Source: an uncultured Candidatus Saccharibacteria bacterium
GTDB lineage: Bacteria; Patescibacteriota; Saccharimonadia; Saccharimonadales; Saccharimonadaceae
Length of the DNA: 64,000 nucleotides
Direction: 5' to 3'
NCBI GenBank assembly: GCA_964483335.1
Contig: CAZAAA010000002.1
Span: 852-64,851 of the forward strand
Part shown: one piece after another, positions 2,821 to 49,366 of the stretch
Position numbering within the stretch: position 1 is the first letter of the stretch
Layout of the letters: each line of letters opens with the position of its first letter
Notes under the pieces: generated by a model
Told to the model about the DNA's origin: nothing
The model's input: the letters and a program-made list of their open reading frames with translations, nothing else
The model's database searches: none
Position numbers and translations under genes: made by a program

Positions 2821-3363
2821 CTATAGTTTCATAATTTCCGCTTCTTTTTCCTTGAAGGCGGCGTCAATTTTATCGGTATATTCGCGAGTTAAATCATCTA
2901 TTTCCTTTTCGGCGCGTTTCCTGGCGTCCTCGGGGAGCTCAGCGGCCTTGATATCTTTTCTGGCATCGTCGCGCACGCCACGGATGGCGACTTTGGCATC
3001 TTCTACTTTGCTACTAGCGGTTTTGACAATTTCTTTGCGACGCTCCTCTGTAAGTGGCGGCACTGGCACGCGAACGACGTGGCCGTCATCAGAAGGGTTA
3101 AGCCCGAGTGACTGGTCTGCGCGAATAGCGGCGGTAATACCAGGAATAGTGGTAGTATCATAAGGAGTAACAACTAGCATTGTGGCGTCGCCAACGGTAA
3201 TATTGGCAATTTGATTAAGCGGCATCCACTGGCCATAGGCCTCGGCTTTGATGCCGTCTAGCATATCGGGGTGCGCCCGACCGGTGCGAACTTTTTTCAT
3301 TTCGCCCATGAAACGTTCAAGGATGGCTTCCATTTGCTGTTTTTCTTCTTTTGTATCGAACAT
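2821..3363 (-). CDS. frr: Ribosome recycling factor
   Basis: VRTGRAHP, LNPSDDG, PPLTEERRKE, KVAIRGVR motifs; AAGGAG RBS. Confidence 0.97.
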   Translation of the reverse strand: MFDTKEEKQQMEAILERFMGEMKKVRTGRAHPDMLDGIKAEAYGQWMPLNQIANITVGDATMLVVTPYDTTTIPGITAAIRADQSLGLNPSDDGHVVRVPVPPLTEERRKEIVKTASSKVEDAKVAIRGVRDDARKDIKAAELPEDARKRAEKEIDDLTREYTDKIDAAFKEKEAEIMKL

Positions 3364-3432
3364 AAGAGACTCCTTTTATCTTATCTTTATTATACACAAT
3401 TTCTGGATTTTATGATATAATGAAAATAGCGT

Positions 3433-10938: not shown

Positions 10939-12537
10939 GTGAATAAAGTTGTTAATTATTTGAATGAGCAAATTGTAGGGAATGTCTATGACAAAGCCTC
11001 AATTTTGGACGCTTACTCTACGGATCGTTCTATCTTAAAAATTACGCCGCGTTTTGTGGCGGTACCGGAAACTACGGCGGATGTACAAGAGTTACTAAAG
11101 TTTAGTTATGAGCTTTCGCGGCGCAATTTTTCCCTGCCAATTACCGTGCGGGGTTCTGGGCTAGATAAAACGGGGGCGGATCTGGGCTCGGGACTGATTA
11201 TTTCTACAGAAAAATTAAATCAAGTGCAGGAAATAGACGAGCGCAGCCGCCTGGTACGGGTACAGGCTGGTACGACGCTAGGAGATTTAAATCAAGTTCT
11301 GGCAATTTATGGTCTGATGGTGCCGGTACAGCTAGACCCACGGGAGACAATTGGCGGGCTAATTGCCAATTTCCCAACTGACCCAGTAGCAAAGAAATAT
11401 GGTAGCATTTTCTACTTCGTAGATAGAGTGGAAGTGGCGCTGGCGAATGGTGATTTAATTCAGACCACTAGTTATACTGCGCGTGGATTGGCGCGCATGA
11501 AGAAACAAACAAATTTTGAGGGTAAGATTTACCGTGATTTGGAGAAATTACTGAACGAGAAATTTGATTTGATTGATGATTTGTCCGAGGACGACCCTAA
11601 ATCTACGGGCTATCAAATGGTGGCGCGCGTACAAGGAAAGGCACACAAAACTTTTGATCTTTTGCCAGTATTCTTTGCTTCGCAGGGGACACTCGGGGTG
11701 ATTACAGAGGTGATTTTGCGCTGTGAGCCGATTCCGCGTCCATCTGCGCACGTATTAGCTAGCTTCATGAAGATAGATAAGGCGCTGGAGTTTTTGAAGA
11801 AAGTGGAAGATTTAGATCCAGTGCATATGGATATTTACGATGTGCGGATTTTCCGGGCGGCGGCAGAACACGGGAAAAACCTTTCTATTATTTCTAAACG
11901 CATGAAAAGTGGCTACTATGTGCTGATTTCATTTGACGATTTTTCGCTAGCCACTAGAGCAAAGCTGAAAAAATGTATGGAGGCGGCAAAACCGTTGGCG
12001 GCATCAGTTTTGGTAGAAAATGAAGAAAACTCGGCAGATTTTATAGAGTTAGACAGCGTAGTAAATGCTTATCTGAATGATGGCGTGGACGGGGAGAGGG
12101 TGGCACTGATGGACAATGTACGGGTGCCGGCAGAGAATTTGCCAGATTTCCTAAGTGATTTGAAAAAACTAGAAAAGAAGTTTGAACGGGATTTGCCTAT
12201 TTATGGCTCATACGGAACGTCTTCTTACTCAGTGCGGCCAAAATTCCAGTTAGACACTTTAGAAGACCGACAAAAAGTGATGAATTTTCTAAAAACTTAC
12301 TCTGATTTAGTAGTAAAACACGACGGAGAAGTGGCCGGAAGCGGCTCAGAAGGACGAACCAAGGCGATTGTAACTACACCAAAGCTCCGGCGCGAGGAAA
12401 AGGCATTGTATGAAGCTGTAAAAAAGATTTTTGACCCGCAAAATATCTTGAACCCGGAAGTAAAACTAGGGATAGATTTGAAAAACACGGTGCGACACCT
12501 GAGGACGTCGAATAACCCAGGGGTAGTGACGGAATAA
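10939..12537 (+). CDS. FAD-binding oxidoreductase (GlcD/D-lactate dehydrogenase-like)
   Basis: ITVRGSGLD, TIGGLIAN, SQGTLGVITEV, FDPQNILNP motifs; probable GTG start 8 nt after TGCTAAAAT. Confidence 0.85.
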   Translation: MNKVVNYLNEQIVGNVYDKASILDAYSTDRSILKITPRFVAVPETTADVQELLKFSYELSRRNFSLPITVRGSGLDKTGADLGSGLIISTEKLNQVQEIDERSRLVRVQAGTTLGDLNQVLAIYGLMVPVQLDPRETIGGLIANFPTDPVAKKYGSIFYFVDRVEVALANGDLIQTTSYTARGLARMKKQTNFEGKIYRDLEKLLNEKFDLIDDLSEDDPKSTGYQMVARVQGKAHKTFDLLPVFFASQGTLGVITEVILRCEPIPRPSAHVLASFMKIDKALEFLKKVEDLDPVHMDIYDVRIFRAAAEHGKNLSIISKRMKSGYYVLISFDDFSLATRAKLKKCMEAAKPLAASVLVENEENSADFIELDSVVNAYLNDGVDGERVALMDNVRVPAENLPDFLSDLKKLEKKFERDLPIYGSYGTSSYSVRPKFQLDTLEDRQKVMNFLKTYSDLVVKHDGEVAGSGSEGRTKAIVTTPKLRREEKALYEAVKKIFDPQNILNPEVKLGIDLKNTVRHLRTSNNPGVVTE

Positions 12538-12562
12538 AAAGCCACCTTCTAAGGTGGTTTTT
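12536..12562. terminator. Bidirectional terminator; original tRNA-Leu terminator displaced by the integrated element
   Basis: AAAAA-GCCACC-TTCTAA-GGTGGT-TTTT immediately left of the att core. Confidence 0.8.
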
Positions 12563-12565
12563 CTT

Positions 12566-12571
12566 TGGTGC
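12566..12571 (+). repeat. Left att core (TGGTGC)
   Basis: Identical to 18754-18759 and in the same reading frame as recombinase codon 533. Confidence 0.75.
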
Positions 12572-12861
12572 ACCTAGTGCAGGCGAATTGGAACCTAATC
12601 TATAAGGAGTTATTACGCTGGCAAAGCCTACTAGAGGAGTCAGCACTTACGAAACACATCCCCTACTCCCGTGGAACCAGTATGTTGTATGCAAGTGGAC
12701 AGGAGCGGATGCGGGAGAAAACCAACACGAGGGACTGTTCACATCACCAAGCGAAGGGGCAGAGACACGAGAAACCGAGAACGGCCAAATCTGATGAAGA
12801 GGACGAACACGAGGACTCGGACAACGCACACGAACTAAGAAGCGAGGAGCGGTCTCCGTGA
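12568..12861 (+). other. Detached alternative 3' end of the recombinase gene (VHLVQANWNLIYKELLRWQSLL...), rejoined only in the excised form
   Basis: Frame open for 97 codons starting exactly at the att core in the recombinase frame; no promoter or RBS of its own. Confidence 0.65.
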
Positions 12862-12892
12862 GGCAGGTGCAAATGCAACTGACGACACACGA
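12725..12892 (+). repeat. Five ACACGA direct repeats bracketed by an 8-bp inverted repeat
   Basis: ACACGA at 12725, 12765, 12807, 12828, 12887; ACTCCCGT (12665-12672) / ACGGGAGT (12893-12900). Confidence 0.7.
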
Positions 12893-13144
12893 ACGGGAGT
12901 TTTTAAGTTGCGGCGGACGCTCGTTTTTGCGAACGGCGACCGCCTTCTACCTCTATAGTAGCACATATTTTGGAGTTGTTTTTTTGTAGGGTTGGACTTT
13001 TCCACAGGGAGTTGCACTCACCTCTGTTAACCTCAAAACTAATCGGGGGTGGGGTTGCTAAGAGGAGGTGTTTTACACACAAGCACCTGTGCCAACACTA
13101 AAAAACAGGTAGCAATAAGGGGTGAGAAGTGATATAATTAAGTA

Positions 13145-13528
13145 ATGAAGAAACGAGGTAAAATCACTCCAAACGGTGTAGTCTTGAAGACTCACGAGAA
13201 CGCTACTGCGGTTTTTCTGACAGAACAGGGTTTTGATGTTGACCTCATCCCTACTAGTAACATTGAAGGAGTGCACACTCCTGATATTAAGATGAACGAG
13301 CTCAAGTGGGAGATGAAGGCACCACTTGGCGAAGGTAATCAGTTGATGGAGAACACCATCCAGAGAGCACTCAAACAATCGCCAAACATCATCATTGACC
13401 TTCGCCATACGAAGAGACATCAGACAAAATGCTTGAGAGAACTGGAAAAACAGTTTGTAAGCAAGAAGAGCCTAAAACGCCTCAAAATCATCACAAAGAG
13501 CGGAAAAACTCTTGATTTTGAGAAGTAG
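13145..13528 (+). CDS. Stand-alone CdiA C-terminal-like (PD-(D/E)xK, tRNase-type) nuclease
   Basis: THE...TPDIKMNELKWEMKAP...IQRALKQSPNIIIDLR pattern; TATAAT 6 nt before ATG. Confidence 0.78.
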   Translation: MKKRGKITPNGVVLKTHENATAVFLTEQGFDVDLIPTSNIEGVHTPDIKMNELKWEMKAPLGEGNQLMENTIQRALKQSPNIIIDLRHTKRHQTKCLRELEKQFVSKKSLKRLKIITKSGKTLDFEK

Positions 13529-13540
13529 TAGGAGTATAAT
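13512..13540 (+). promoter_or_regulatory. Sigma70 promoter overlapping the 3' end of the nuclease gene
   Basis: TTGATT (13512-13517), 17-nt spacer, TATAAT (13535-13540). Confidence 0.8.
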
Positions 13541-13546
13541 CATAAG

Positions 13547-13620
13547 TAATGAGGGCAGGACCTGCAGTGTAATATGCGGGACACCGCCCTCTTTTAGGTT
13601 GGCTTCTAGCCACCTTTTTT
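13547..13620 (+). ncRNA. Putative small structured RNA downstream of the CdiA-C-like nuclease (candidate RNA antitoxin)
   Basis: GAGGGC-A-GG/CC-GCCCTC outer stem, CCTGCA/TGCGGG inner stem, then terminator hairpin 13596-13615 plus T tract. Confidence 0.6.
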
Positions 13621-13660
13621 GATGAAAAAACTACCACTGAACTAATGCTACAATCAGAGT

Positions 13661-14200
13661 ATGAGAGTAACAAAATATACTGATGACACTAAGGTGAAAC
13701 TGCTTACGCATATCAGGGAGGGTAGAACTGTCAAAGATGCTTGCTCACTAGTTGGCATCTCTGATATGACGCTCACTCGCTGGAGAAGACGTTTTTCTGA
13801 TTTTGATGCAGATTACTTAAAAGCAGTTGAGAGCCAGTGGCAGAACCTTGATGCGACCAAAGAAAGTGGTGTAAGGACTTACAGGCGAAACACCACAAAA
13901 CTCCGTCAAAAGGCAGAAAAACAGGCTAAAATCCAGAAAATGGCAGAAAAAGAACAGGAACTAGCAAGGACTGGCAAACCGCTTACTTACGAAGGCTTAC
14001 GCATCCGTTATGGTAGCATCGCTGATGACGAGCCGCTAATGCCCTGCATTAACCCTAGTAATGGTTTTGTGGAGTATCTGAAACGACAAAGTGGCAACTA
14101 TGTCCAGTTCTCTTGTTCACTTGATGCGTTCCGCAAAAGTAATCCTGCGTGGTATCGCAGGCTAGTGGATGAGAACTCTGCTCTTGATGTTGGTGATTAA
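13661..14200 (+). CDS. HTH protein, terminase small subunit/phBC6A51-like N-terminal domain
   Basis: IREGRTVKDACSLVGISDMTLTRWRRRFSDF helix-turn-helix; TACAAT 6 nt before ATG. Confidence 0.65.
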   Translation: MRVTKYTDDTKVKLLTHIREGRTVKDACSLVGISDMTLTRWRRRFSDFDADYLKAVESQWQNLDATKESGVRTYRRNTTKLRQKAEKQAKIQKMAEKEQELARTGKPLTYEGLRIRYGSIADDEPLMPCINPSNGFVEYLKRQSGNYVQFSCSLDAFRKSNPAWYRRLVDENSALDVGD

Positions 14201-14389
14201 GACGTGATTTTACACGCTCCGCCCCTGTTGATGCTTGCCTTGTTGTCTACCTCAAAGGTTGGACTTCTGGAAAAATCAAAATAGACAGATTGGACACAAG
14301 TAGGGTTTTGACCTGAACAACGTTTTTTGCCGACCTCATATAATATACTCACCAAAAAATGCAAGACCCAAAAGGAATATAATGGACTT

Positions 14390-14719
14390 ATGAGTAGAAA
14401 AATCAAACTAACCGAGAAAAGGACGCAGATTATCGTAAGGGCTATACGAGATGGCTACACAATCACTGATGCTTGCGAGATGGCTTGTATCGGACGGAGC
14501 ACCTACTACAAGTGGCTTGAGGAGTTCCCAGACTTCAATAAGGCGATTGTAGAGGCAACAGATTCGCAATGGAAGTATGCGACTTGGCGAGTGCGACACG
14601 GCTACAGGAGTTATGAGCGGCATCATCTGAACCGCCCATCTGTTAACTACCGAAGTCCAAACAATATGCCTTTTGTGATGCCGCCAGTAGAGGGTTTTAG
14701 TCTTGATGAGAATGGCTAA
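14390..14719 (+). CDS. HTH protein, paralogue of 13661-14200
   Basis: IRDGYTITDACEMACIGRSTYYKWLEEFPDF; shares SQW...G.R.Y.R tail; TATAAT 6 nt before ATG at 14390. Confidence 0.65.
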   Translation: MSRKIKLTEKRTQIIVRAIRDGYTITDACEMACIGRSTYYKWLEEFPDFNKAIVEATDSQWKYATWRVRHGYRSYERHHLNRPSVNYRSPNNMPFVMPPVEGFSLDENG

Positions 14720-14734
14720 AATCTGATGGAAGTA

Positions 14735-14763
14735 TTGACAAAATTAAGCATATGTGCTATAAT
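14735..14763 (+). promoter_or_regulatory. Consensus sigma70 promoter with extended -10
   Basis: TTGACA (14735-14740), 17 nt, TATAAT (14758-14763), TG at 14755-14756. Confidence 0.9.
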
Positions 14764-14769
14764 GGAGTT

Positions 14770-15204
14770 ATCGTCAGGAATGATGATATACGATACTCGC
14801 TGAAGTTGAAGTCTCTGAGCCAAGGCGAAGAGATGGGAGCAACCAAGTTAAAAAGTGGTCTGGAAGATGCAAGCGGAAAATCCGCAAATAAGTTCCCAAA
14901 AGCACCTTAAGAATGCATCTCCACGTATCGTTATTAAAAACCAGTTAGAGGGGCGAATTACTAGCCAAAGTTCTTATATCAACATCCAGCAGAGACTGGT
15001 GAGATGGGAAGTGAACCAAGGCGAAAAGACGGTTTGAGAAGTAGTAGCCAGACGAAATATGCTCAGGTGAACCTGTGAAAAGGGAGTGCGAAATAGCACG
15101 CAAATCTTCCCAAAGCACCTTACACCTTCCATCCTGTAGTTCAATCAAATCTCATATAAGCCCCTATTATCGCCCTGCTCAATTACGAGCAGGGCTTTCC
15201 TTTT
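14770..15204 (+). ncRNA. Putative ~435-nt two-domain structured non-coding RNA
   Basis: Consensus promoter, no credible ORF or RBS, GNRA-capped hairpin, two long-range closing helices, internal sequence repeat, terminator at 15172-15204. Confidence 0.65.
15172..15204 (+). terminator. Intrinsic terminator
   Basis: GCCCTGCTC-AATTAC-GAGCAGGGC followed by TTTCCTTTT. Confidence 0.85.
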
Positions 15205-15243
15205 GTTTGGTTCCAAACGATGCTTTGGTATGGTATAATTAAA

Positions 15244-15369
15244 GTGTTCCATCATTCAAATTTGTAGTAAGTTCACCCCTAACGAGGTGGAGCAAAGAAT
15301 TGAACCCAGAGCGGAGCACCCGCTCCAGTTGGCTCAATCGCTTACTGCAGAAAATGAGTGATGGAACAC
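15244..15369 (+). ncRNA. Putative ~125-nt three-way-junction RNA (ncRNA or cis-leader)
   Basis: 15-bp closing stem GTGTTCCATCATTCA/TGAGTGATGGAACAC, 9-bp TGTAGTAAG/CTTACTGCA stem, two internal hairpins; TGGTATAAT at 15231-15239. Confidence 0.6.
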
Positions 15370-15450
15370 CCATAGCGGGTGTTCCGCTTAGTTTAGGGGA
15401 AGCCCGTGCTTATATTAAACATAATGGCGGGCTTCCCGCTGGAGGAAAAT

Positions 15451-16632
15451 ATGGACAACAAATACGAAGCAACGGGTAATACCGGCCAAAGCAATGCTGA
15501 GACTGGTTGGGAAGGTGTAGCGGCATTGGCTGACGATTTCCAAACCAATAGACCAATAGCAGAAGCAGGGGCACAACAACCAGAGACAATCTCACAGCCT
15601 GAAGTAGTTTTATCTGCCAGTAATAATGTTTATCGTGAAATTGCTAAAGACGCTTTGAAAAATTGGAACGGCTTATCAGATGAAGAAGCCTCAGAAAAAG
15701 TAAATGGAGCATCAGTAGAAGAACTTGAAAGCCAAGTCTATGCTGGAGACTCCATTAAAGCCGCTGTGTCTGGAATTGGAAGTGCACTAGAGAGTAGAGG
15801 TATTACTTGGCAAGGTGAAGAAGACTTACTGAGTTCAGTATTAGACGGAGAGAAACAAGATAGTTCCTTTTCTACCCTCTCTGAATGTTTGGAACGAGTT
15901 GACGACAAAGAGGGGTTTGTCATAGATGTATTGTCAGATATTCATAAGAACTGGGCTGAAACAAATCTCAAGAAGTTTGCAGATGAAAAACGTAGGAACA
16001 AACAATACCAGTTTATGCCTCTTGAGTTGATTGGGAATAAAGAGGCTAGGGCAGACTTATTGTTCCTAGAGCCAATCTTAAAGGCTGGAAACTTTGGAGA
16101 TGAGCACTTTGGTGAACAACTAGACCAGAAATACACTGAACGGCAAAATGAGTTTCTGGAGAAAAATAACTTGCATAGTTTTGGAGACGTAGCATCAGCA
16201 CTTCAAGACCCTGAAAACTGGAATAATGGAAACAATGATGTAATTCCAGAATGGTGGAGCAAACTCCCAGACACCGCTGTTAAAATTGGCGGATGGATTG
16301 GAGATACACCTGCAGGTATTGAAGAAGGCTTAAGATTAGGAAAGAAAGCAAGTGCCGTTAGAATTGCCGCTCAGGTTGAACAGAGAGTTCCTGCTTTGGC
16401 TGATAACGCTCCCGTCAATGGCGAAAACTACCCGTGGCATTATGATGGTGGAGACCGTGATACTTGGCAAACTGGCACAATGCCAGAATGGGTGCTGGGC
16501 AAAATCCATAGAACTTGCGAAGCATACGAACAAAACGGCAAAGTTTTGACTAAGACCGAACTCAGGAAATCAGTTCTAGAGGAGTTTAACTATAGTAGCG
16601 GCTCAGCAATTTGCACCAATGCGATTGTCTAA
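15451..16632 (+). CDS. Acidic hypothetical cargo protein (393 aa), possible RyR-like helical domain
   Basis: Long ORF, GGAGGA RBS before ATG 15451; LSDIHKNW...FMPLELIGNKEARAD segment; terminator hairpin at ~16645-16684. Confidence 0.75.
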   Translation: MDNKYEATGNTGQSNAETGWEGVAALADDFQTNRPIAEAGAQQPETISQPEVVLSASNNVYREIAKDALKNWNGLSDEEASEKVNGASVEELESQVYAGDSIKAAVSGIGSALESRGITWQGEEDLLSSVLDGEKQDSSFSTLSECLERVDDKEGFVIDVLSDIHKNWAETNLKKFADEKRRNKQYQFMPLELIGNKEARADLLFLEPILKAGNFGDEHFGEQLDQKYTERQNEFLEKNNLHSFGDVASALQDPENWNNGNNDVIPEWWSKLPDTAVKIGGWIGDTPAGIEEGLRLGKKASAVRIAAQVEQRVPALADNAPVNGENYPWHYDGGDRDTWQTGTMPEWVLGKIHRTCEAYEQNGKVLTKTELRKSVLEEFNYSSGSAICTNAIV

Positions 16633-16916
16633 TGCGAGTCGTAAGCCCCTTGTAGAGCCTCTCAGAGGCTCACAGGGGCTATTTTAGTGCTACGGGAGTG
16701 CACTTTTACAAGTAGATTGGTGAAGGTCTTGACGTTGGTTCCAAATGGGCTATAATGTAGGTATAGACACCTTATGAGAAAATAGCCTTTTACCGCATCG
16801 GAAAGGATGTAAGCGGTAAAAAAACAAACTCTTGTCCCACTTAGGCAACTGGGAATGACACCTCGTTTTATCTAAGCACTGACGAAGTTGTTAGTGCAGA
16901 AAAATGGCAGGTCTCT

Positions 16917-17156
16917 ATGGCTTCTGTAGCCGATTTGCCCAGTAAACTCACTGCGGCAGAAAGAACCAAGTCGCAAGCCGTCAACTTTATGAGCGTCAAA
17001 GAACTGAGAAAAGTTCTTGGCAAAAATGCTGACGGTATTGACGACCGACACCTCTTAGAAGTTAGTGTTGCCATCGGTAAAATCTCGCTGATGATGACGA
17101 CTAACCCAGAACTGATTGAGAAAATCACCAAATCTTATAACGCCAAGAAAGGTTAA
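16917..17156 (+). CDS. Small protein upstream of the recombinase, putative recombination directionality factor
   Basis: MSVKELRKVLG helix motif; stop 3 nt before the recombinase start; function inferred from position. Confidence 0.5.
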   Translation: MASVADLPSKLTAAERTKSQAVNFMSVKELRKVLGKNADGIDDRHLLEVSVAIGKISLMMTTNPELIEKITKSYNAKKG

Positions 17157-17159
17157 ATT

Positions 17160-18920
17160 ATGGCAAATATGAAAACTCCCGAGCAGGGAGACAAGAAAAA
17201 AGCGGTTGGCTATACCCGTGTGTCAACTGAAGAACAAGTAGACGGGGCTTCTAAAGAAGTGCAGAAACAGGCAATTCTGGAGTATGCGAAGAAATACAAC
17301 CTAGAAATCTCAGAACAAGACATCTACTGGGATGGCGGGTTTTCCGCCAAAAACGCAAACCGACCAGAACTCCAGCGGATGCTGAGTGAAATTGAAGACG
17401 GCACCATCAAGCCAGATGTGCTGATTGTTTACAATCTATCACGCATCTCACGCAACCTAATGTCGTTCTCAGGAGATATTGCTCCAACTCTAGCAAAACA
17501 TAAGGTGGAACTCCGTTCTACCTGTGAGGACATCAACGAAACCCCTCAGGGCAAGTTTATGATGAACCTCTCTATTGCTCTTCATCAATTGGACAACGAC
17601 ACGAAGAGTAAGACTACTTCTGATAATATGAAAATGGTCGCATCTGAAGGCTACTGGCAAAGTTACCCGCCACTGGGAATGGTTAACGACCACGTGCAGA
17701 CGGGCTTAAAAACCAAAGACGGTAAGCCACGCTACCGCACTATCTTGAAGCCAGATTTGCGGAACGACACTGCTCAAAAGGTTAAAGACGTGCTAGACTA
17801 CTACGCACAGGGTGATAAAACTAAGGCTCAGACGCTAAGGTATGCAGGCAAAATCGGGCTCAAGACTAGAGCAGGTAAAGCCCTGACTCTCCAGTCTCTG
17901 ATTGAACTACTCCAGCAACCCGCTCTGGCTGGCTACATCTGTTCACCAACTTTGACTGATGGACAGTATATCAAAGCCCAGTGGGACGGTCTTATCTCAC
18001 TGGAGCAGCATCTGCTGATTTTGGAGTTGCTCCGTGGTGGGAGCGACCCAGATAAAAAGCAGATTTACCGCAGAAATAATCCAGACTTCCCTCTTAAGGG
18101 GACGCTCATCTGTGGATGTTGTGGCTATGCGGCACGTGGCTCTTGTCCACGATGTGGAAGCGGTGCCAAAAGTCCACGCTATCACTGTTCTGAGTGTGTT
18201 GGTGCTGGCTCTATCAAGCCAGAAAAGATGCACGAGAAGTTCATTGACCTTCTTGCTCGCATTACGCCTGTCAAAAGCCTTCTGAGAGCCTTTGGGCTCT
18301 CTATGGGGCGAGCGATGAAACACAGCGTAGAAAAGGCTCAGAAAACGATTGCGGAACAAGAAGCGTTGATTAAAACATATGCAGAGCAAGAAGAGGAGTC
18401 GTTCTTCTTAGCCAGCACGCATCAACGCTCGGAAGCCGACCATAATCGTCTTGTTGCTATCTTGCAAAAGAAAACCAAGCAGGCTGAACAAGCGATTGAA
18501 GAGGCTAAAGAACTTAAAAGCATCAGCGAGCACAAGATTAAGTGCCTTGTAGATTTGATGGAGAACCCCGCCGACTTATGGCGGGGGGCTTCCCTTGAAG
18601 TGCGACAGATGCTCCAGAAGATGATTTTTCCGAACGGACTAAGTGTCAATTTGAAGACTGGAGAGTTTGCAGAAATTGGAACCAACGACATCAGCCCGCT
18701 CTTCTCTGTTATTTGCACCAAAAATGGCTCAAAAGAGCCAGATTATTCAGATGTGGTGCCCGGGACTGGACTCGAACCAGCAAGCCGTGAGGCATATGCT
18801 CCTAAGGCATACGTGTCTACCAATTTCACCACCCGGGCAAGGGTTGGTGGTTACGAGCTTTATTATAGCAGATTTTACTGTGGCTGGCTAGAGTTTTGTG
18901 GCGGCACTGGGGCTGGCTGA
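17160..18920 (+). CDS. Large serine recombinase (resolvase, recombinase and Zn-ribbon domains); integrated-state C-terminus reads antisense through tRNA-Leu
   Basis: GYTRVSTEEQ catalytic Ser motif, YNLSRISRN, PLKGTLICGCCG...YHCSEC zinc ribbon, coiled coil. Confidence 0.93.
   Translation: MANMKTPEQGDKKKAVGYTRVSTEEQVDGASKEVQKQAILEYAKKYNLEISEQDIYWDGGFSAKNANRPELQRMLSEIEDGTIKPDVLIVYNLSRISRNLMSFSGDIAPTLAKHKVELRSTCEDINETPQGKFMMNLSIALHQLDNDTKSKTTSDNMKMVASEGYWQSYPPLGMVNDHVQTGLKTKDGKPRYRTILKPDLRNDTAQKVKDVLDYYAQGDKTKAQTLRYAGKIGLKTRAGKALTLQSLIELLQQPALAGYICSPTLTDGQYIKAQWDGLISLEQHLLILELLRGGSDPDKKQIYRRNNPDFPLKGTLICGCCGYAARGSCPRCGSGAKSPRYHCSECVGAGSIKPEKMHEKFIDLLARITPVKSLLRAFGLSMGRAMKHSVEKAQKTIAEQEALIKTYAEQEEESFFLASTHQRSEADHNRLVAILQKKTKQAEQAIEEAKELKSISEHKIKCLVDLMENPADLWRGASLEVRQMLQKMIFPNGLSVNLKTGEFAEIGTNDISPLFSVICTKNGSKEPDYSDVVPGTGLEPASREAYAPKAYVSTNFTTRARVGGYELYYSRFYCGWLEFCGGTGAG
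18754..18838 (-). tRNA. trnL: tRNA-Leu(TAG), integration target
   Basis: GCCCGGG/CCCGGGC acceptor stem, TATGC-CTTAGGA-GCATA anticodon arm, long variable arm, CCA; TGCTATAAT promoter upstream. Confidence 0.96.
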
Positions 18921-40388: not shown

Positions 40389-40564
40389 AGTATTTGTTCC
40401 TTTTTTATTGTTTTTATATATGACCTTTCGGTATTTTCTATTATATGAGGGTTTTACGCTTATGTCAATAAGATTTTCTAGGATTTTTAATAAAGTTTTC
40501 CACAATCAGTGAGTGTTGTATTTTTGTAGCATCTTATGATATAATATATGTATTAACAATCTGG

Positions 40565-40653
40565 GCACCCGTGGTGGAATTGGTAGACACGCTACCTTGA
40601 GGTGGTAGTGGCGACTAAAAGCTGTGCTAGTTCGAGTCTAGTCGGGTGCACCA
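40565..40653 (+). tRNA. trnL: tRNA-Leu(GAG)
   Basis: GCACCCG/CGGGTGC acceptor stem, CTACC-TTGAGGT-GGTAG anticodon arm, long variable arm, CCA. Confidence 0.96.
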
Positions 40654-40692
40654 AAAAATCTCGCTGTTGCGAGTTTTTTGTTGCTTTAAGTG

Positions 40693-41511
40693 TCAACTAT
40701 TTTTTACAGTAACCTGATGATATGGGATGGGGATTTTCTGAGCTTTAAATTCTTTGAGAATTGCTTTACGCATCATGCTTTGGATAGATGAACAATCCGC
40801 AGCGGCGCAAGGGCAGGATAATTTATAAGTTACTCCTTCTGAATCTAGATCGGCAGCTGCCGGGGTAAGTGATATTTCTCCCGGTTTCAAATTCATAGAG
40901 TGCGCGATATGCCTACTAACTTCATTCAAGGCAGTGACAGCTTTATCTAAATCAGTATCATAGGAGGTGCAAACCTCTACGACGGCAAGGGTAGCAAACT
41001 TGCTGTAATTAATGAGGCCATCTATACTATGGTTGGCAATAATTTTAACTTGGCCACCGTCGCTCTTTATTTCAGTAGTCTTTAGTCCAACATTAAGTAC
41101 AGTTCCTTTGAACCCGTTAATTTCTACAATGTCACCAACGCAAAATTGTCCTTCAATTAGAATGGTAACTCCGGCAATAAAATCTTTAATCATATCCTGA
41201 AAAGCGAGGCCAAGCACCGCCGTAAGGATACCTAAGCCCGCAACCAAGGAGGAGATATTCACCCCTAAATCTGCCAAGATGACCAAAAGCGTAAGAACTA
41301 GCATGAGATATTTCAAGACGCTCCTAAGCATCTGAGAAACAGTCCTGATACGTTGTCTCTGTTCAGCGCTAACCTTTTTTCCTCCGGCGCGCTCAAATGT
41401 GACAGTGAGAACACGCCGAATGATTAAATAAATAATAAAAACGAACAAAAGATATAGTACTGAATTTATTATTTTTCTAGTGCTGACTTCTACGCCAAAG
41501 ATATTTAGCAT
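40693..41511 (-). CDS. MscS family mechanosensitive channel
   Basis: LGLAFQDMIKDFIAG, FCVGDIVEING, TVLNVGLKTTEI motifs. Confidence 0.9.
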   Translation of the reverse strand: MLNIFGVEVSTRKIINSVLYLLFVFIIYLIIRRVLTVTFERAGGKKVSAEQRQRIRTVSQMLRSVLKYLMLVLTLLVILADLGVNISSLVAGLGILTAVLGLAFQDMIKDFIAGVTILIEGQFCVGDIVEINGFKGTVLNVGLKTTEIKSDGGQVKIIANHSIDGLINYSKFATLAVVEVCTSYDTDLDKAVTALNEVSRHIAHSMNLKPGEISLTPAAADLDSEGVTYKLSCPCAAADCSSIQSMMRKAILKEFKAQKIPIPYHQVTVKNS

Positions 41512-41524
41512 TGTTTTTCCCTAG

Positions 41525-42472
41525 TTATGATGCAATTAGCTCAGTGCTGTTAACGTCATAATCAACGAGTGCTGCTTTTTTAATGGCCGGATCTTCATAA
41601 GTACTCCAATAATAGGTATTTGTAGCGCTAGAAAAGCCGCCAGTATAAATGGTCTTCTCGTAATCGCCGGTAGCCATCTGGGCGGCGCCGTCAATCATAG
41701 CTACCCCAGTAAGGGTGTGGAAGAGGCGAGAAACATTTTCTTCTTCAGTGGATTTAGTAGGATAATGCGTATTGAGATAGGCAACTCTAACAAAACGTGA
41801 CGGAGAATAGTAATCGCCAGGGAGACCGCGCAGCAAGGAGCCAGAACCAAAAGCAGTCATTTTAGCTTTACCCCAAACGACTTGCCCTGGTTGTGGGCTA
41901 GCAAGATTCATATAGTTGCGAAGGTTTTCCTGGTGCCATCCGTAACCCGGCTGATTGGCAAGTACGTCTACGTCATTATGGAAAATTTGGAGACCTGCGG
42001 CAGTATATTCCACGACGATACTGCGAGTTTTGTCGCCAATGATCCAGTGCAGCAGAGAAACCGGATATTTATCATTAATTGGTTTAGAGACGATAGCTAC
42101 ATCTTTTAGGGCGGCTTCTACTTCATCAACGGTAGCAAAATTCATTGCTACCCAGAGTGGGAATTCATAAGCAGAGACATTAGTTTTTCCATCAATAGCA
42201 TTTGGCGCATATTCAGCATAGCCTGGAAAATTTAGACCAGCAATAGCTAGACCAGCTTCGTTGCCACAATCAAAATAAAGCGGCACATTTTCTTCAATAA
42301 TGCCCATACCAATCAGGGCATATTTAGGAATTATCTCACCAAGAAAAGCAGAGTGATAATGATAACCCCTAGGAGTAACAACAATCTTTTGACCGTAGCC
42401 TACCGACCAGTCTAAGTTTCTCCCAAAATACATATTGCCTTTATCGTCACTAAAACGTATCCCAGTGCACAT
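41525..42472 (-). CDS. bsh: Choloylglycine hydrolase (bile salt hydrolase)
   Basis: N-terminal nucleophile Cys2 (MCTGIRF), GRNLDW, NEAGL, ANQP, PGDYYSPSRFVRVAY. Confidence 0.92.
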   Translation of the reverse strand: MCTGIRFSDDKGNMYFGRNLDWSVGYGQKIVVTPRGYHYHSAFLGEIIPKYALIGMGIIEENVPLYFDCGNEAGLAIAGLNFPGYAEYAPNAIDGKTNVSAYEFPLWVAMNFATVDEVEAALKDVAIVSKPINDKYPVSLLHWIIGDKTRSIVVEYTAAGLQIFHNDVDVLANQPGYGWHQENLRNYMNLASPQPGQVVWGKAKMTAFGSGSLLRGLPGDYYSPSRFVRVAYLNTHYPTKSTEEENVSRLFHTLTGVAMIDGAAQMATGDYEKTIYTGGFSSATNTYYWSTYEDPAIKKAALVDYDVNSTELIAS

Positions 42473-48845: not shown

Positions 48846-48898
48846 TAAAAAGAGCCCTAGTGCCATGGAATAAACATCACGGCTAAGGGCTCTTCTTA
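48846..48898 (-). ncRNA. Putative small hairpin RNA downstream of the second CdiA-C-like gene (may double as a terminator)
   Basis: Promoter TTGAAA (48933-48928)-17-TACAAT (48910-48905); interrupted 16-bp hairpin AAGAGCCCU..CCGUG/CAUGG..AGGGCUCUU plus U tract. Confidence 0.55.
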
Positions 48899-48919
48899 TT
48901 TAATATTGTATCATATTTA

Positions 48920-49366
48920 TTATCTTATTTCAATAATAGTACCGTCTTTTCTTATTAAAATCAAATGGCGGATAGTACCGGCGCGTTGCGTGGCCAATTG
49001 CGCAAGTCGTGCCTGAATTTCTTCCACTGAGATAGCAATTTTTCTGGCATCAAAAATAATGCTCCCGGAATACGGGAGCGCACGTTTAATTTGACGTTCG
49101 ATAGAGCGGAAACTTCTACCAATGGGGCTTTTAATCTTCCAAAGCGTATCAAATAATACGATATCGGGAGTGTGGATACGGGGATGCGGAGAAATAAACG
49201 TGATGCTAGTATTATAGTGCGTGGCAATAATACTAGCAGCAGATAATTTCTCTGGGGTCAAAAAAAGCGGATTACAGCCGCTAAGATGGAGACAATAGTC
49301 ATCCTTGCAATATTTTATATTCATTTTATTATAATAATCAATTTTATTGTAGGGTGTAGTAGTCAT
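48920..49366 (-). CDS. Second stand-alone CdiA-C-like nuclease homologue, probably catalytically degenerate
   Basis: HTPDIVLFDTLWKIKSPIG...IKRAL..SGSIIFDAR; expected catalytic Glu positions appear as Lys; AAGGAG RBS. Confidence 0.68.
   Translation of the reverse strand: MTTTPYNKIDYYNKMNIKYCKDDYCLHLSGCNPLFLTPEKLSAASIIATHYNTSITFISPHPRIHTPDIVLFDTLWKIKSPIGRSFRSIERQIKRALPYSGSIIFDARKIAISVEEIQARLAQLATQRAGTIRHLILIRKDGTIIEIR

Follow-up and report, generated by a model that had tools for sequence, protein, structure and literature searches.

A stand-alone CdiA_C nuclease gene and an adjoining small hairpin RNA gene as a candidate toxin and RNA antitoxin module in Saccharibacteria

What could a small hairpin RNA gene be for when its promoter begins inside the last codons of a nuclease gene? 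The question is raised by a locus in a 64,000-nucleotide stretch of DNA from an uncultured Candidatus Saccharibacteria bacterium (GenBank assembly GCA_964483335.1, contig CAZAAA010000002.1, positions 852 to 64,851). This whole stretch is called the window here, and coordinates refer to it unless another contig is named. In it, the gene of a stand-alone CdiA_C nuclease, referred to as copy 1, is followed by a predicted RNA gene with a promoter of its own. Comparison of this locus with its homologues makes it very likely that the nuclease gene and the RNA gene are a real functional pair, and we lean towards the view that the pair represents a protein toxin and its RNA antitoxin. Full-text searches of the literature gave no description of a module composed of this nuclease and a hairpin RNA.

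The copy 1 gene, at positions 13145 to 13528 of the forward strand, encodes a putative toxin of 127 amino acids with an isoelectric point (pI) of 9.8. A preliminary description of the window had recognized a stand-alone PD-(D/E)xK open reading frame (ORF) here, and both Pfam and the motif residues agree: the protein matches the CdiA_C family (PF18451) with an E-value of 2.9e-11 and 43.8 bits against a gathering cut-off of 26.6, a cut-off exceeded by all four CdiA_C copies of the genome, and the motifs H17-E18, P46-D47 and W55-E56-M57-K58 are all there. In a set of 35 diverse homologues, D47 and K58 never vary, and conservation is at least 90% for E18, E56, A75, Q78 and S79; this conservation of catalytic residues indicates that the PD-(D/E)xK site is under selection. 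An AlphaFold2 model computed from an alignment of 55 sequences has a mean predicted local distance difference test score (pLDDT) of 92.9 and a predicted template modeling score (pTM) of 0.85. When this model was searched against the Protein Data Bank (PDB) with Foldseek, the sole match at E ≤ 0.001 was 4g6v_A (E 8.5e-7, TM-score 0.72), and a sequence search of the PDB returned the same entry weakly (E 0.48). Chain A of 4G6V is the tRNase toxin CdiA-CT of Burkholderia pseudomallei 1026b, in complex with CdiI. The copy 1 protein is probably a cytoplasmic RNase or tRNase of the CdiA-CT(II) Bp1026b type. The homologous proteins are strongly basic (median pI 10.0, net charge +11.6), and among the best 150 of 1,766 cluster representatives (clusters defined at 50% identity) the length is nearly always between 75 and 183 amino acids, with one of 303. 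At these lengths, no delivery domain is present in the stand-alone homologues among those best 150 representatives.

The nuclease gene has an extended −10 box, TGaTATAAT, at 13130 to 13138 of the forward strand. The box ends 6 nucleotides (nt) 5' of the ATG, and for this reason the copy 1 mRNA is predicted to be leaderless. At the other end of the gene, a promoter scan identified a sigma70-type promoter on the same strand (TTGATT-17-TATAAT, 13512 to 13540, 10 of 12 matches to consensus) whose −35 box lies inside the last nuclease codons, L-D-F, just as the preliminary description had read it. The hairpin that starts 10 nt past this −10 box spans 13548 to 13595 (+) and was assigned by its fold and by a covariance model to an RNA class that we designate class A (73.7 bits, E 3.6e-21). 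It consists of a first paired region, P1 (13551-13559 with 13585-13591), and a second, P2 (13561-13566 with 13575-13580), with the apical loop GUGUAAUA, an ACA bulge on the 3' side and a U-run directly afterwards at 13592-13595. A terminator scan and folding place a second, canonical intrinsic terminator at 13597 to 13620 (+), in which GGUUGGCUUCUAGCCACC is followed by U6. The predicted transcript 13541-13622 folds into the interrupted hairpin (13551-13591) and the terminator hairpin with −32.1 kcal/mol and a z-score of −3.9. An RNA of about 75 nt ending at 13620 had been proposed for this site; its hairpin and terminator fold is borne out, and an end at the U-run 13592-13595 is also possible, so that the RNA may be either about 45 or about 75 nt long.

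At Rfam gathering thresholds no family was found for this RNA, and the matches below them were at chance level (RAGATH-23, with 21.6 of 92.6 bits and on the opposite strand, and the rnk leader). A small peptide encoded in the RNA was considered and rejected; the frames are of 3 to 7 codons only and are unconserved. Similarly, a direct repeat flanking copy 1 (GAGAAGT...TATAAT...TAAGTAATGA) was rejected as a duplicated promoter, as no repeat family was found and other loci are without it. An exact 15-nt repeat, TTTGAGAAGTAGTAG, comprising the last nuclease codons and the stop codon (13517-13531), recurs 1.5 kb downstream at 15033-15047, within a non-coding stretch that opens with a promoter, TTGACA-17-TGcTATAAT, at 14736-14764. 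No hairpin of the family follows this second copy.

Is the arrangement at copy 1 a coincidence? The genome (643 kb, 97.5% complete) holds four CdiA_C paralogues, and all of them are followed by a promoter and a hairpin. The second paralogue of the window, copy 2, encodes 148 amino acids on the reverse strand at 48920 to 49366 (27 bits in Pfam), is convergent with the enolase gene, and shares 31% identity with copy 1 over 75 amino acids (E 1e-12). Its RNA promoter, TTGAAA-17-TGaTACAAT, was located by sequence inspection and by the genome scan at 48905 to 48933 (−) with the −35 box in codons I-E-I, and the interrupted hairpin with its U-run occupies 48847 to 48897 (−; −28.1 kcal/mol, z −5.7). 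The layout is thus repeated at 48846-49366, where the preliminary description had seen it. The copy 2 hairpin lies directly after the enolase stop codon of the opposite strand. The region following enolase is variable across the genus, and in no other genome of the genus is enolase followed by such a hairpin or by a CdiA_C gene. The two remaining paralogues are on another contig (C6) and carry TTGACA-17-TGcTAAGAT and TTGAAA-17-TGaTATTAT at the same position, with similar hairpins.

The whole genome was also scanned on both strands (1.29 Mb) under relaxed settings for a promoter, a hairpin within 14 nt of it and a U-run. This returned 40 sites, four of which lie exactly at the four CdiA_C stop codons. 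As only 40 sites were found in total, a coincidence of four with the four stop codons places the layout far beyond chance, which upholds the earlier judgement that its recurrence was unlikely to be accidental. There are no orphan RNA units in this genome, the four units being distributed one per toxin gene, and no ORF is found in the 45 to 130 nt between each nuclease gene and the next gene at this genome's loci. At four other scan sites outside the window (C9:15451, C6:30187, C20:390 and C1:75626), none of them close to a CdiA_C gene, a near-consensus promoter leads straight into a simple, short hairpin followed by a U-run; they may represent additional tiny RNA genes or have arisen by chance.

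To what extent is the layout kept outside this genome? Homologue loci were gathered to a total of 150, and 148 had enough downstream sequence for a strict automated test requiring three things: a promoter at the ORF's 3' end that matches in 9 or more of 12 positions, a hairpin no more than 14 nt from the −10 box, and a U-run. The possibility, raised in the preliminary description, that homologues generally lack the promoter and hairpin was not borne out, as 132 of the 148 loci carry both, with a hairpin that covaries. By eye the count rises to approximately 143, since most of the 16 failures show the RNA on inspection, which leaves as true exceptions pseudogenes, copies with a frameshift and the most distant members. 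The −10 box lies 16-18 nt downstream of the −35 box in 132 of the 148 loci, and among those passing the test the spacer is exactly 17 nt in 119. The commonest −35 boxes are TTGATT, TTGACA and TTGAAT, the commonest −10 box is TATAAT, and the hairpin base follows 9-10 nt past the latter. Across homologues the conserved C-terminal codons h-[D/E]-h supply the −35 box. Placement of the stop codon ranges from −33 to +5 with promoter spacing unchanged, and at one locus the entire promoter lies past the stop. Because the −10 box keeps its fixed distance wherever the stop codon falls, the promoter is not a by-product of coding. Moreover, of 68 loci compared, 58 have an RNA promoter nearer to consensus than that of the toxin gene, with means of 10.05 and 7.9 matches out of 12. 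In half of these loci (34 of 68) the toxin gene has an extended −10 box, TGnTAnnnT, that ends 6-7 nt before the ATG, with no Shine-Dalgarno sequence, and this short distance implies that leaderless toxin mRNAs are not peculiar to copy 1.

Within the genus, 32 of 37 genomes have ORFs matching PF18451, with 1-6 copies each; so do 3 of 24 genomes of other families of the order and 5 of 401 genomes sampled across the phylum. Proteins nearly identical to those of the window belong to records of Candidatus Saccharibacteria, Nanosynbacter and Nanosyncoccus. The layout is also kept in other Patescibacteria families and on contigs labelled Lachnospiraceae, Clostridiales and Saccharofermentans, and the isolate Ruminococcaceae KHP2 (FWXP01000007.1) has a frameshifted nuclease gene next to an intact promoter (TTGACT-17-TACAAT) and an intact class A hairpin. 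The family is concentrated in Saccharibacteria and occurs also in rumen Firmicutes. No homologue was found on plasmids, and the module is rare on viral contigs. Could a protein partner be encoded nearby instead? No conserved neighboring protein family is present across 70 loci. An antisense protein antitoxin within the nuclease ORF was likewise rejected, the best antisense frame being fully open in only 10 of 150 loci.

The RNA is conserved in a manner that the surrounding sequence is not. For pairs of loci with RNA identity of at least 80%, the ORFs share 49-75% of their nucleotides and the flanks about 40-50%, as does unrelated sequence; these pairs were chosen on RNA identity, and the comparison therefore describes a pattern and is not an unbiased estimate of rates. 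The copy 1 RNA is, for example, 100% identical to that of one homologue (L028) with the ORF at 71%, the protein at 74% and the flank at 44%, and for another pair (L062 and L068) the RNA is 91% and the protein 47% identical. Covariation was computed within RNA classes because a MAFFT alignment of all classes had ragged 3' ends. In class A (29 distinct sequences), 93.6% of alignment cells are paired and double compensatory changes are seen in 10 of 14 pairs. None of 500 shuffles matched either the paired fraction or the covariation score, and controls in which the structure was slid along the alignment pair at 40-59%. In the main class, compensation is seen in 13 of 15 pairs. In the resulting architecture, P1 and P2 are separated by an asymmetric internal loop, and P2 is capped by an apical loop that is conserved. 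The sequence of P1 varies freely with compensation, and the parts conserved in sequence are a bulged A, the A and ACA of the internal loop and the apical loop (UGGAUAUA-type). The single-stranded variable part is almost nil, being limited to a 5' leader of 2-3 nt and the U-tail. A separate canonical terminator follows the hairpin in the window copy, in a C6 copy and in others, and some units have no U-run. Several loci hold two or three units in tandem, or combine units of different classes, within one transcript that has one final terminator; two of them (L088 and L089) have a class A hairpin and one of another class fused together, and in a third (L103) three tandem class-A-like units stand behind one promoter. 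Taken together, the sequence comparisons indicate that the RNA is a gene rather than a mere terminator.

If the two genes form a pair, which of them is found without the other? A class A covariance model run over 61 genomes gave 10 matches: six immediately follow a CdiA_C ORF, another comes second in line after a unit of a different class, and three have no nuclease gene. At one of these three orphans the toxin ORF has been deleted to its last 16 codons with promoter and RNA perfect, and the other two consist of promoter and RNA only. A similarity scan of the homologue loci found 147 RNA sites, 130 at the cognate position and 17 elsewhere. All 17 have their own −10 box, one adjoins a tRNA gene, and some lie divergently upstream of another toxin gene. 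The motif GTAGGGGGTTGAAAA was noticed upstream of many toxin genes (L012, L020, L106, L117); read on the opposite strand, it is the promoter region of an orphan RNA gene that belongs to another class and is transcribed divergently, so that RNA genes flank some toxin genes on both sides. Intact nuclease genes without an RNA are nearly absent among the 148 loci. The RNA is therefore tolerated alone and the nuclease almost never is, which is the pattern expected of an antidote and a toxin.

We propose the following mechanism for such a toxin and antitoxin pair. A modest promoter would drive the toxin gene, whose mRNA would mostly be leaderless, and the RNA of 45-75 nt would be transcribed from its near-consensus promoter with a start 2-3 nt before the hairpin. 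The hairpin would usually terminate both transcripts, and because it would end both, the toxin mRNA would hold one copy of the RNA in cis; the strong RNA promoter would supply free copies in excess. Within this reading, direct RNA-protein binding is the most likely mechanism, as in type III systems, and the RNA might neutralize the nuclease by sitting in the active-site cleft as a pseudo-substrate. The toxin would then be freed if the module were lost or transcription shut off, which would stabilize the mobile islands that carry copies or kill infected cells. The notion of an RNA-regulated toxin, put forward in the preliminary description, has thus gained strong comparative support from co-occurrence, conservation, covariation, the orphan units and the lack of a protein partner. 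Its further suggestion of a tRNA-like decoy has not: when the four RNAs were aligned locally to the 40 tRNAs of the genome, none scored above the 95th percentile of shuffled sequences, and since P1 varies freely with compensation, any tRNA mimicry would be one of shape only. An abortive-infection role, also suggested there, is pure inference, given that PADLOC returned no match and viral contigs rarely carry the module. A more specific proposal, quite possible but tentative, is that the RNA stands in place of a CdiI-type immunity protein, such that a hairpin of about 45 nt blocks a CdiA-CT-like (t)RNase in at least 16 cognate classes, with orphan and mixed RNA arrays that parallel orphan immunity clusters.

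Several points weigh against an RNA antitoxin. The existence, start and ends of the RNA are predicted from sequence, the nuclease is presumed toxic by homology alone, and the binding of one to the other is postulated; transcription, toxicity, binding and biological role are all things that we infer. Neither PADLOC nor NCBIfam returned a match for the nuclease, and the PADLOC result counts here. The RNA is usually one 40-45 nt hairpin downstream of its toxin, which is not the type III form. The sense strand folds more stably in 59 of 101 distinct hairpins, a modest effect in favor of RNA-level structure among sequences that are not independent. Mapping of RNA class on the protein tree takes 16 changes for 16 states (shuffled labels: mean 60.7, minimum 53), and although this congruence fits cognate pairs, it is explained by tight physical linkage alone. 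Lastly, an activating, substrate or regulatory RNA would be co-inherited equally well.

We regard as the main rival an RNA that is a partner of the nuclease and not its antidote, acting as a cofactor or activator, as a substrate with an active cleavage product or as a specificity subunit, for example in an RNA-dependent defence effector. Co-occurrence, co-diversification and conserved loops would fit any obligate protein-RNA pair, and the nuclease is basic. However, RNA units with intact promoters outlive deleted or frameshifted nuclease genes and the reverse is almost never seen; such an asymmetry is expected of an antidote and not of a cofactor, and a guide role would find almost no single-stranded variable segment to act through. 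We consider a non-antidote partner unlikely, yet the most serious of the alternatives. Could the promoter and hairpin simply control toxin expression, by transcriptional interference or occlusion, through stability of the 3' untranslated region, or as a small RNA of type I character? The promoter does overlap the 3' end of the ORF in the same orientation, and the hairpin doubles as the 3' end of the toxin mRNA. On the other hand, the RNA has no excess complementarity to the toxin mRNA, orphan and tandem units occur away from any toxin gene, and neither interference nor stability needs a conserved apical loop or bulge sequence, so that expression control seems improbable to us.

Two simpler explanations fare worse. 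According to one, the hairpin is a mere intrinsic terminator, bidirectional at convergent junctions, and the promoter a by-product of C-terminal codons and AT-rich DNA. That conserved h-[D/E]-h codons make up the −35 box, that three of the four copies of this genome lie at convergent junctions, and that a U-run directly follows most hairpins all speak for it. It is nevertheless hard to reconcile with a −10 spacing fixed in 132 of 148 loci regardless of the stop position, with orphans that keep both boxes in the absence of an ORF, and with RNA identity of 80-100%, including loops and bulge, where ORF nucleotides are at 49-75%. Tandem units and units lacking a U-run are followed by a separate terminator, and the enolase terminators of related genomes are ordinary and unrelated to the copy 2 hairpin; a plain terminator is thus highly improbable. 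The other holds that the hairpin is a DNA-level mobility site, comparable to attC, to repetitive extragenic palindromic (REP) elements or to IS200/IS605 ends and recognized as single strand or cruciform, with the nuclease as a mobility enzyme. Copies do lie in variable regions and beside tRNA genes, and a DNA hairpin would keep covariation too. But nearly all loci have a near-consensus promoter that precedes the hairpin base by 9-10 nt, the sense strand both folds better and has more G-U pairs than the antisense strand (151 versus 84), the hairpin is present at only one end of the unit, and the closest fold is that of an RNase toxin; this explanation is left with a very small chance of being correct.

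Preferring, then, the toxin and RNA antitoxin pair, where in the genome do its copies reside? Copy 1 lies between a gene for an FAD-linked oxidase, which ends at 12537, and a tRNA-Leu gene (18754-18838, −), and it is housed in an apparent integrative element (12540-18920). This element also holds ORFs resembling helix-turn-helix proteins and the Sf6 small terminase (13661-14200 and 14327-14719), long non-coding stretches, a 408-amino-acid ORF with no Pfam match, and the gene of a large serine recombinase of 586 amino acids (17160-18920) whose 3' end overlaps the tRNA-Leu gene. One C6 paralogue (about 40400-41850 of that contig) comes directly after a reverse-transcriptase ORF (RVT_1, YVDD motif) and a non-coding stretch of roughly 630 nt in which GTT/AAC-type repeats abound, an arrangement reminiscent of a diversity-generating retroelement. 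A protein resembling the target of such a retroelement adjoins about 15 of 70 homologue loci, and a reverse transcriptase adjoins 3 of the 70. Integrative element, variable post-enolase region and retroelement neighbors together indicate that the module resides in variable or mobile DNA.

To our knowledge, almost nothing has been established about toxin-antitoxin biology, small RNAs or defence in Saccharibacteria. If our reading is correct, the module would be a new and large family of RNA antitoxins built on a fold so far known only with protein immunity, and it would show that polymorphic-toxin domains can become domesticated when the immunity partner is an RNA. The module would also account for the presence in Saccharibacteria of a gene family that reaches 4-6 copies in genomes of only 0.6-0.8 Mb, and would offer a minimal protein-RNA recognition pair of about 500 base pairs with many natural orthogonal variants, useful for specificity studies and as a tool. 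A promoter placed inside the stop-codon region, combined with leaderless toxin mRNAs, is a compact regulatory design.

How does the module compare with systems already described? Its protein is closest to the CdiA-CT(II) toxin of Bp1026b (4G6V, PF18451), with which it shares the domain, the fold, the catalytic acidic residues and a Q-S motif. In contrast to systems of contact-dependent growth inhibition (CDI), the domain stands alone here (127-148 amino acids, with its own promoter) with neither a CdiA delivery region nor CdiB, and there is no CdiI-like ORF downstream; the RNA gene takes the place of the immunity gene. A CdiA_C-like C-terminal domain with 26-31% identity is also found in Streptococcus Javan prophages and in three IMG/VR contigs, where the domain is accompanied by an interrupted hairpin with a 3' bulge of 5-7 nt that follows the stop codon or overlaps it with its 5' arm (L188 2860-2950, Streptococcus phage Javan513; L189-L191, about 3290-3370, the IMG/VR contigs). 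Unlike copy 1, these domains are fused to a head-morphogenesis protein of 400-480 amino acids encoded after the portal gene, and the fusions are MuF-type polymorphic toxins of temperate phages. The phage loci also differ in having no −10 box 17 nt after the −35-like codons, and thus no separate RNA gene, and in being followed by small ORFs that are candidate protein immunity genes. The presence of a hairpin without a −10 box suggests that the association with a hairpin may predate the dedicated promoter.

RalR/RalA and SymE/SymR are type I systems in which small RNAs base-pair with the mRNAs of nuclease toxins. The module resembles them in setting a nuclease-type toxin under a small RNA, but there is no antisense overlap between its RNA gene and the toxin gene. 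Antisense pairing was examined with RNAduplex and rejected: relative to shuffled sequences, the mean z-score was −0.2 when the 5' region was considered and −0.1 when the mRNA was taken whole, and only 1 of 64 loci fell below −2. Because the RNA is without complementarity to the toxin mRNA, a type I system is excluded.

Type III systems (ToxIN, CptIN, TenpIN) share with the module a nuclease toxin beside a small non-coding RNA gene, the lack of a protein antitoxin and the lack of antisense complementarity. As in those systems, the RNA is predicted to be in excess, and at a few loci two or three tandem units are present per transcript. The toxin, in contrast, is of the PD-(D/E)xK / CdiA-CT type and not of the ToxN, AbiQ, CptN or TenpN type, with CdiA_C as its only Pfam family and 4G6V as its only fold match. 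In the general account of these systems, drawn in part from PMC12283969, ToxIN-type RNA is a processed array of 36-nt-type repeats located upstream of the toxin gene and co-transcribed with it through a leaky terminator. The promoter of the RNA described here is its own and lies within the last codons of the toxin. The best reading is of a logic like that of type III systems, from which the module differs in toxin fold, RNA form and gene order.

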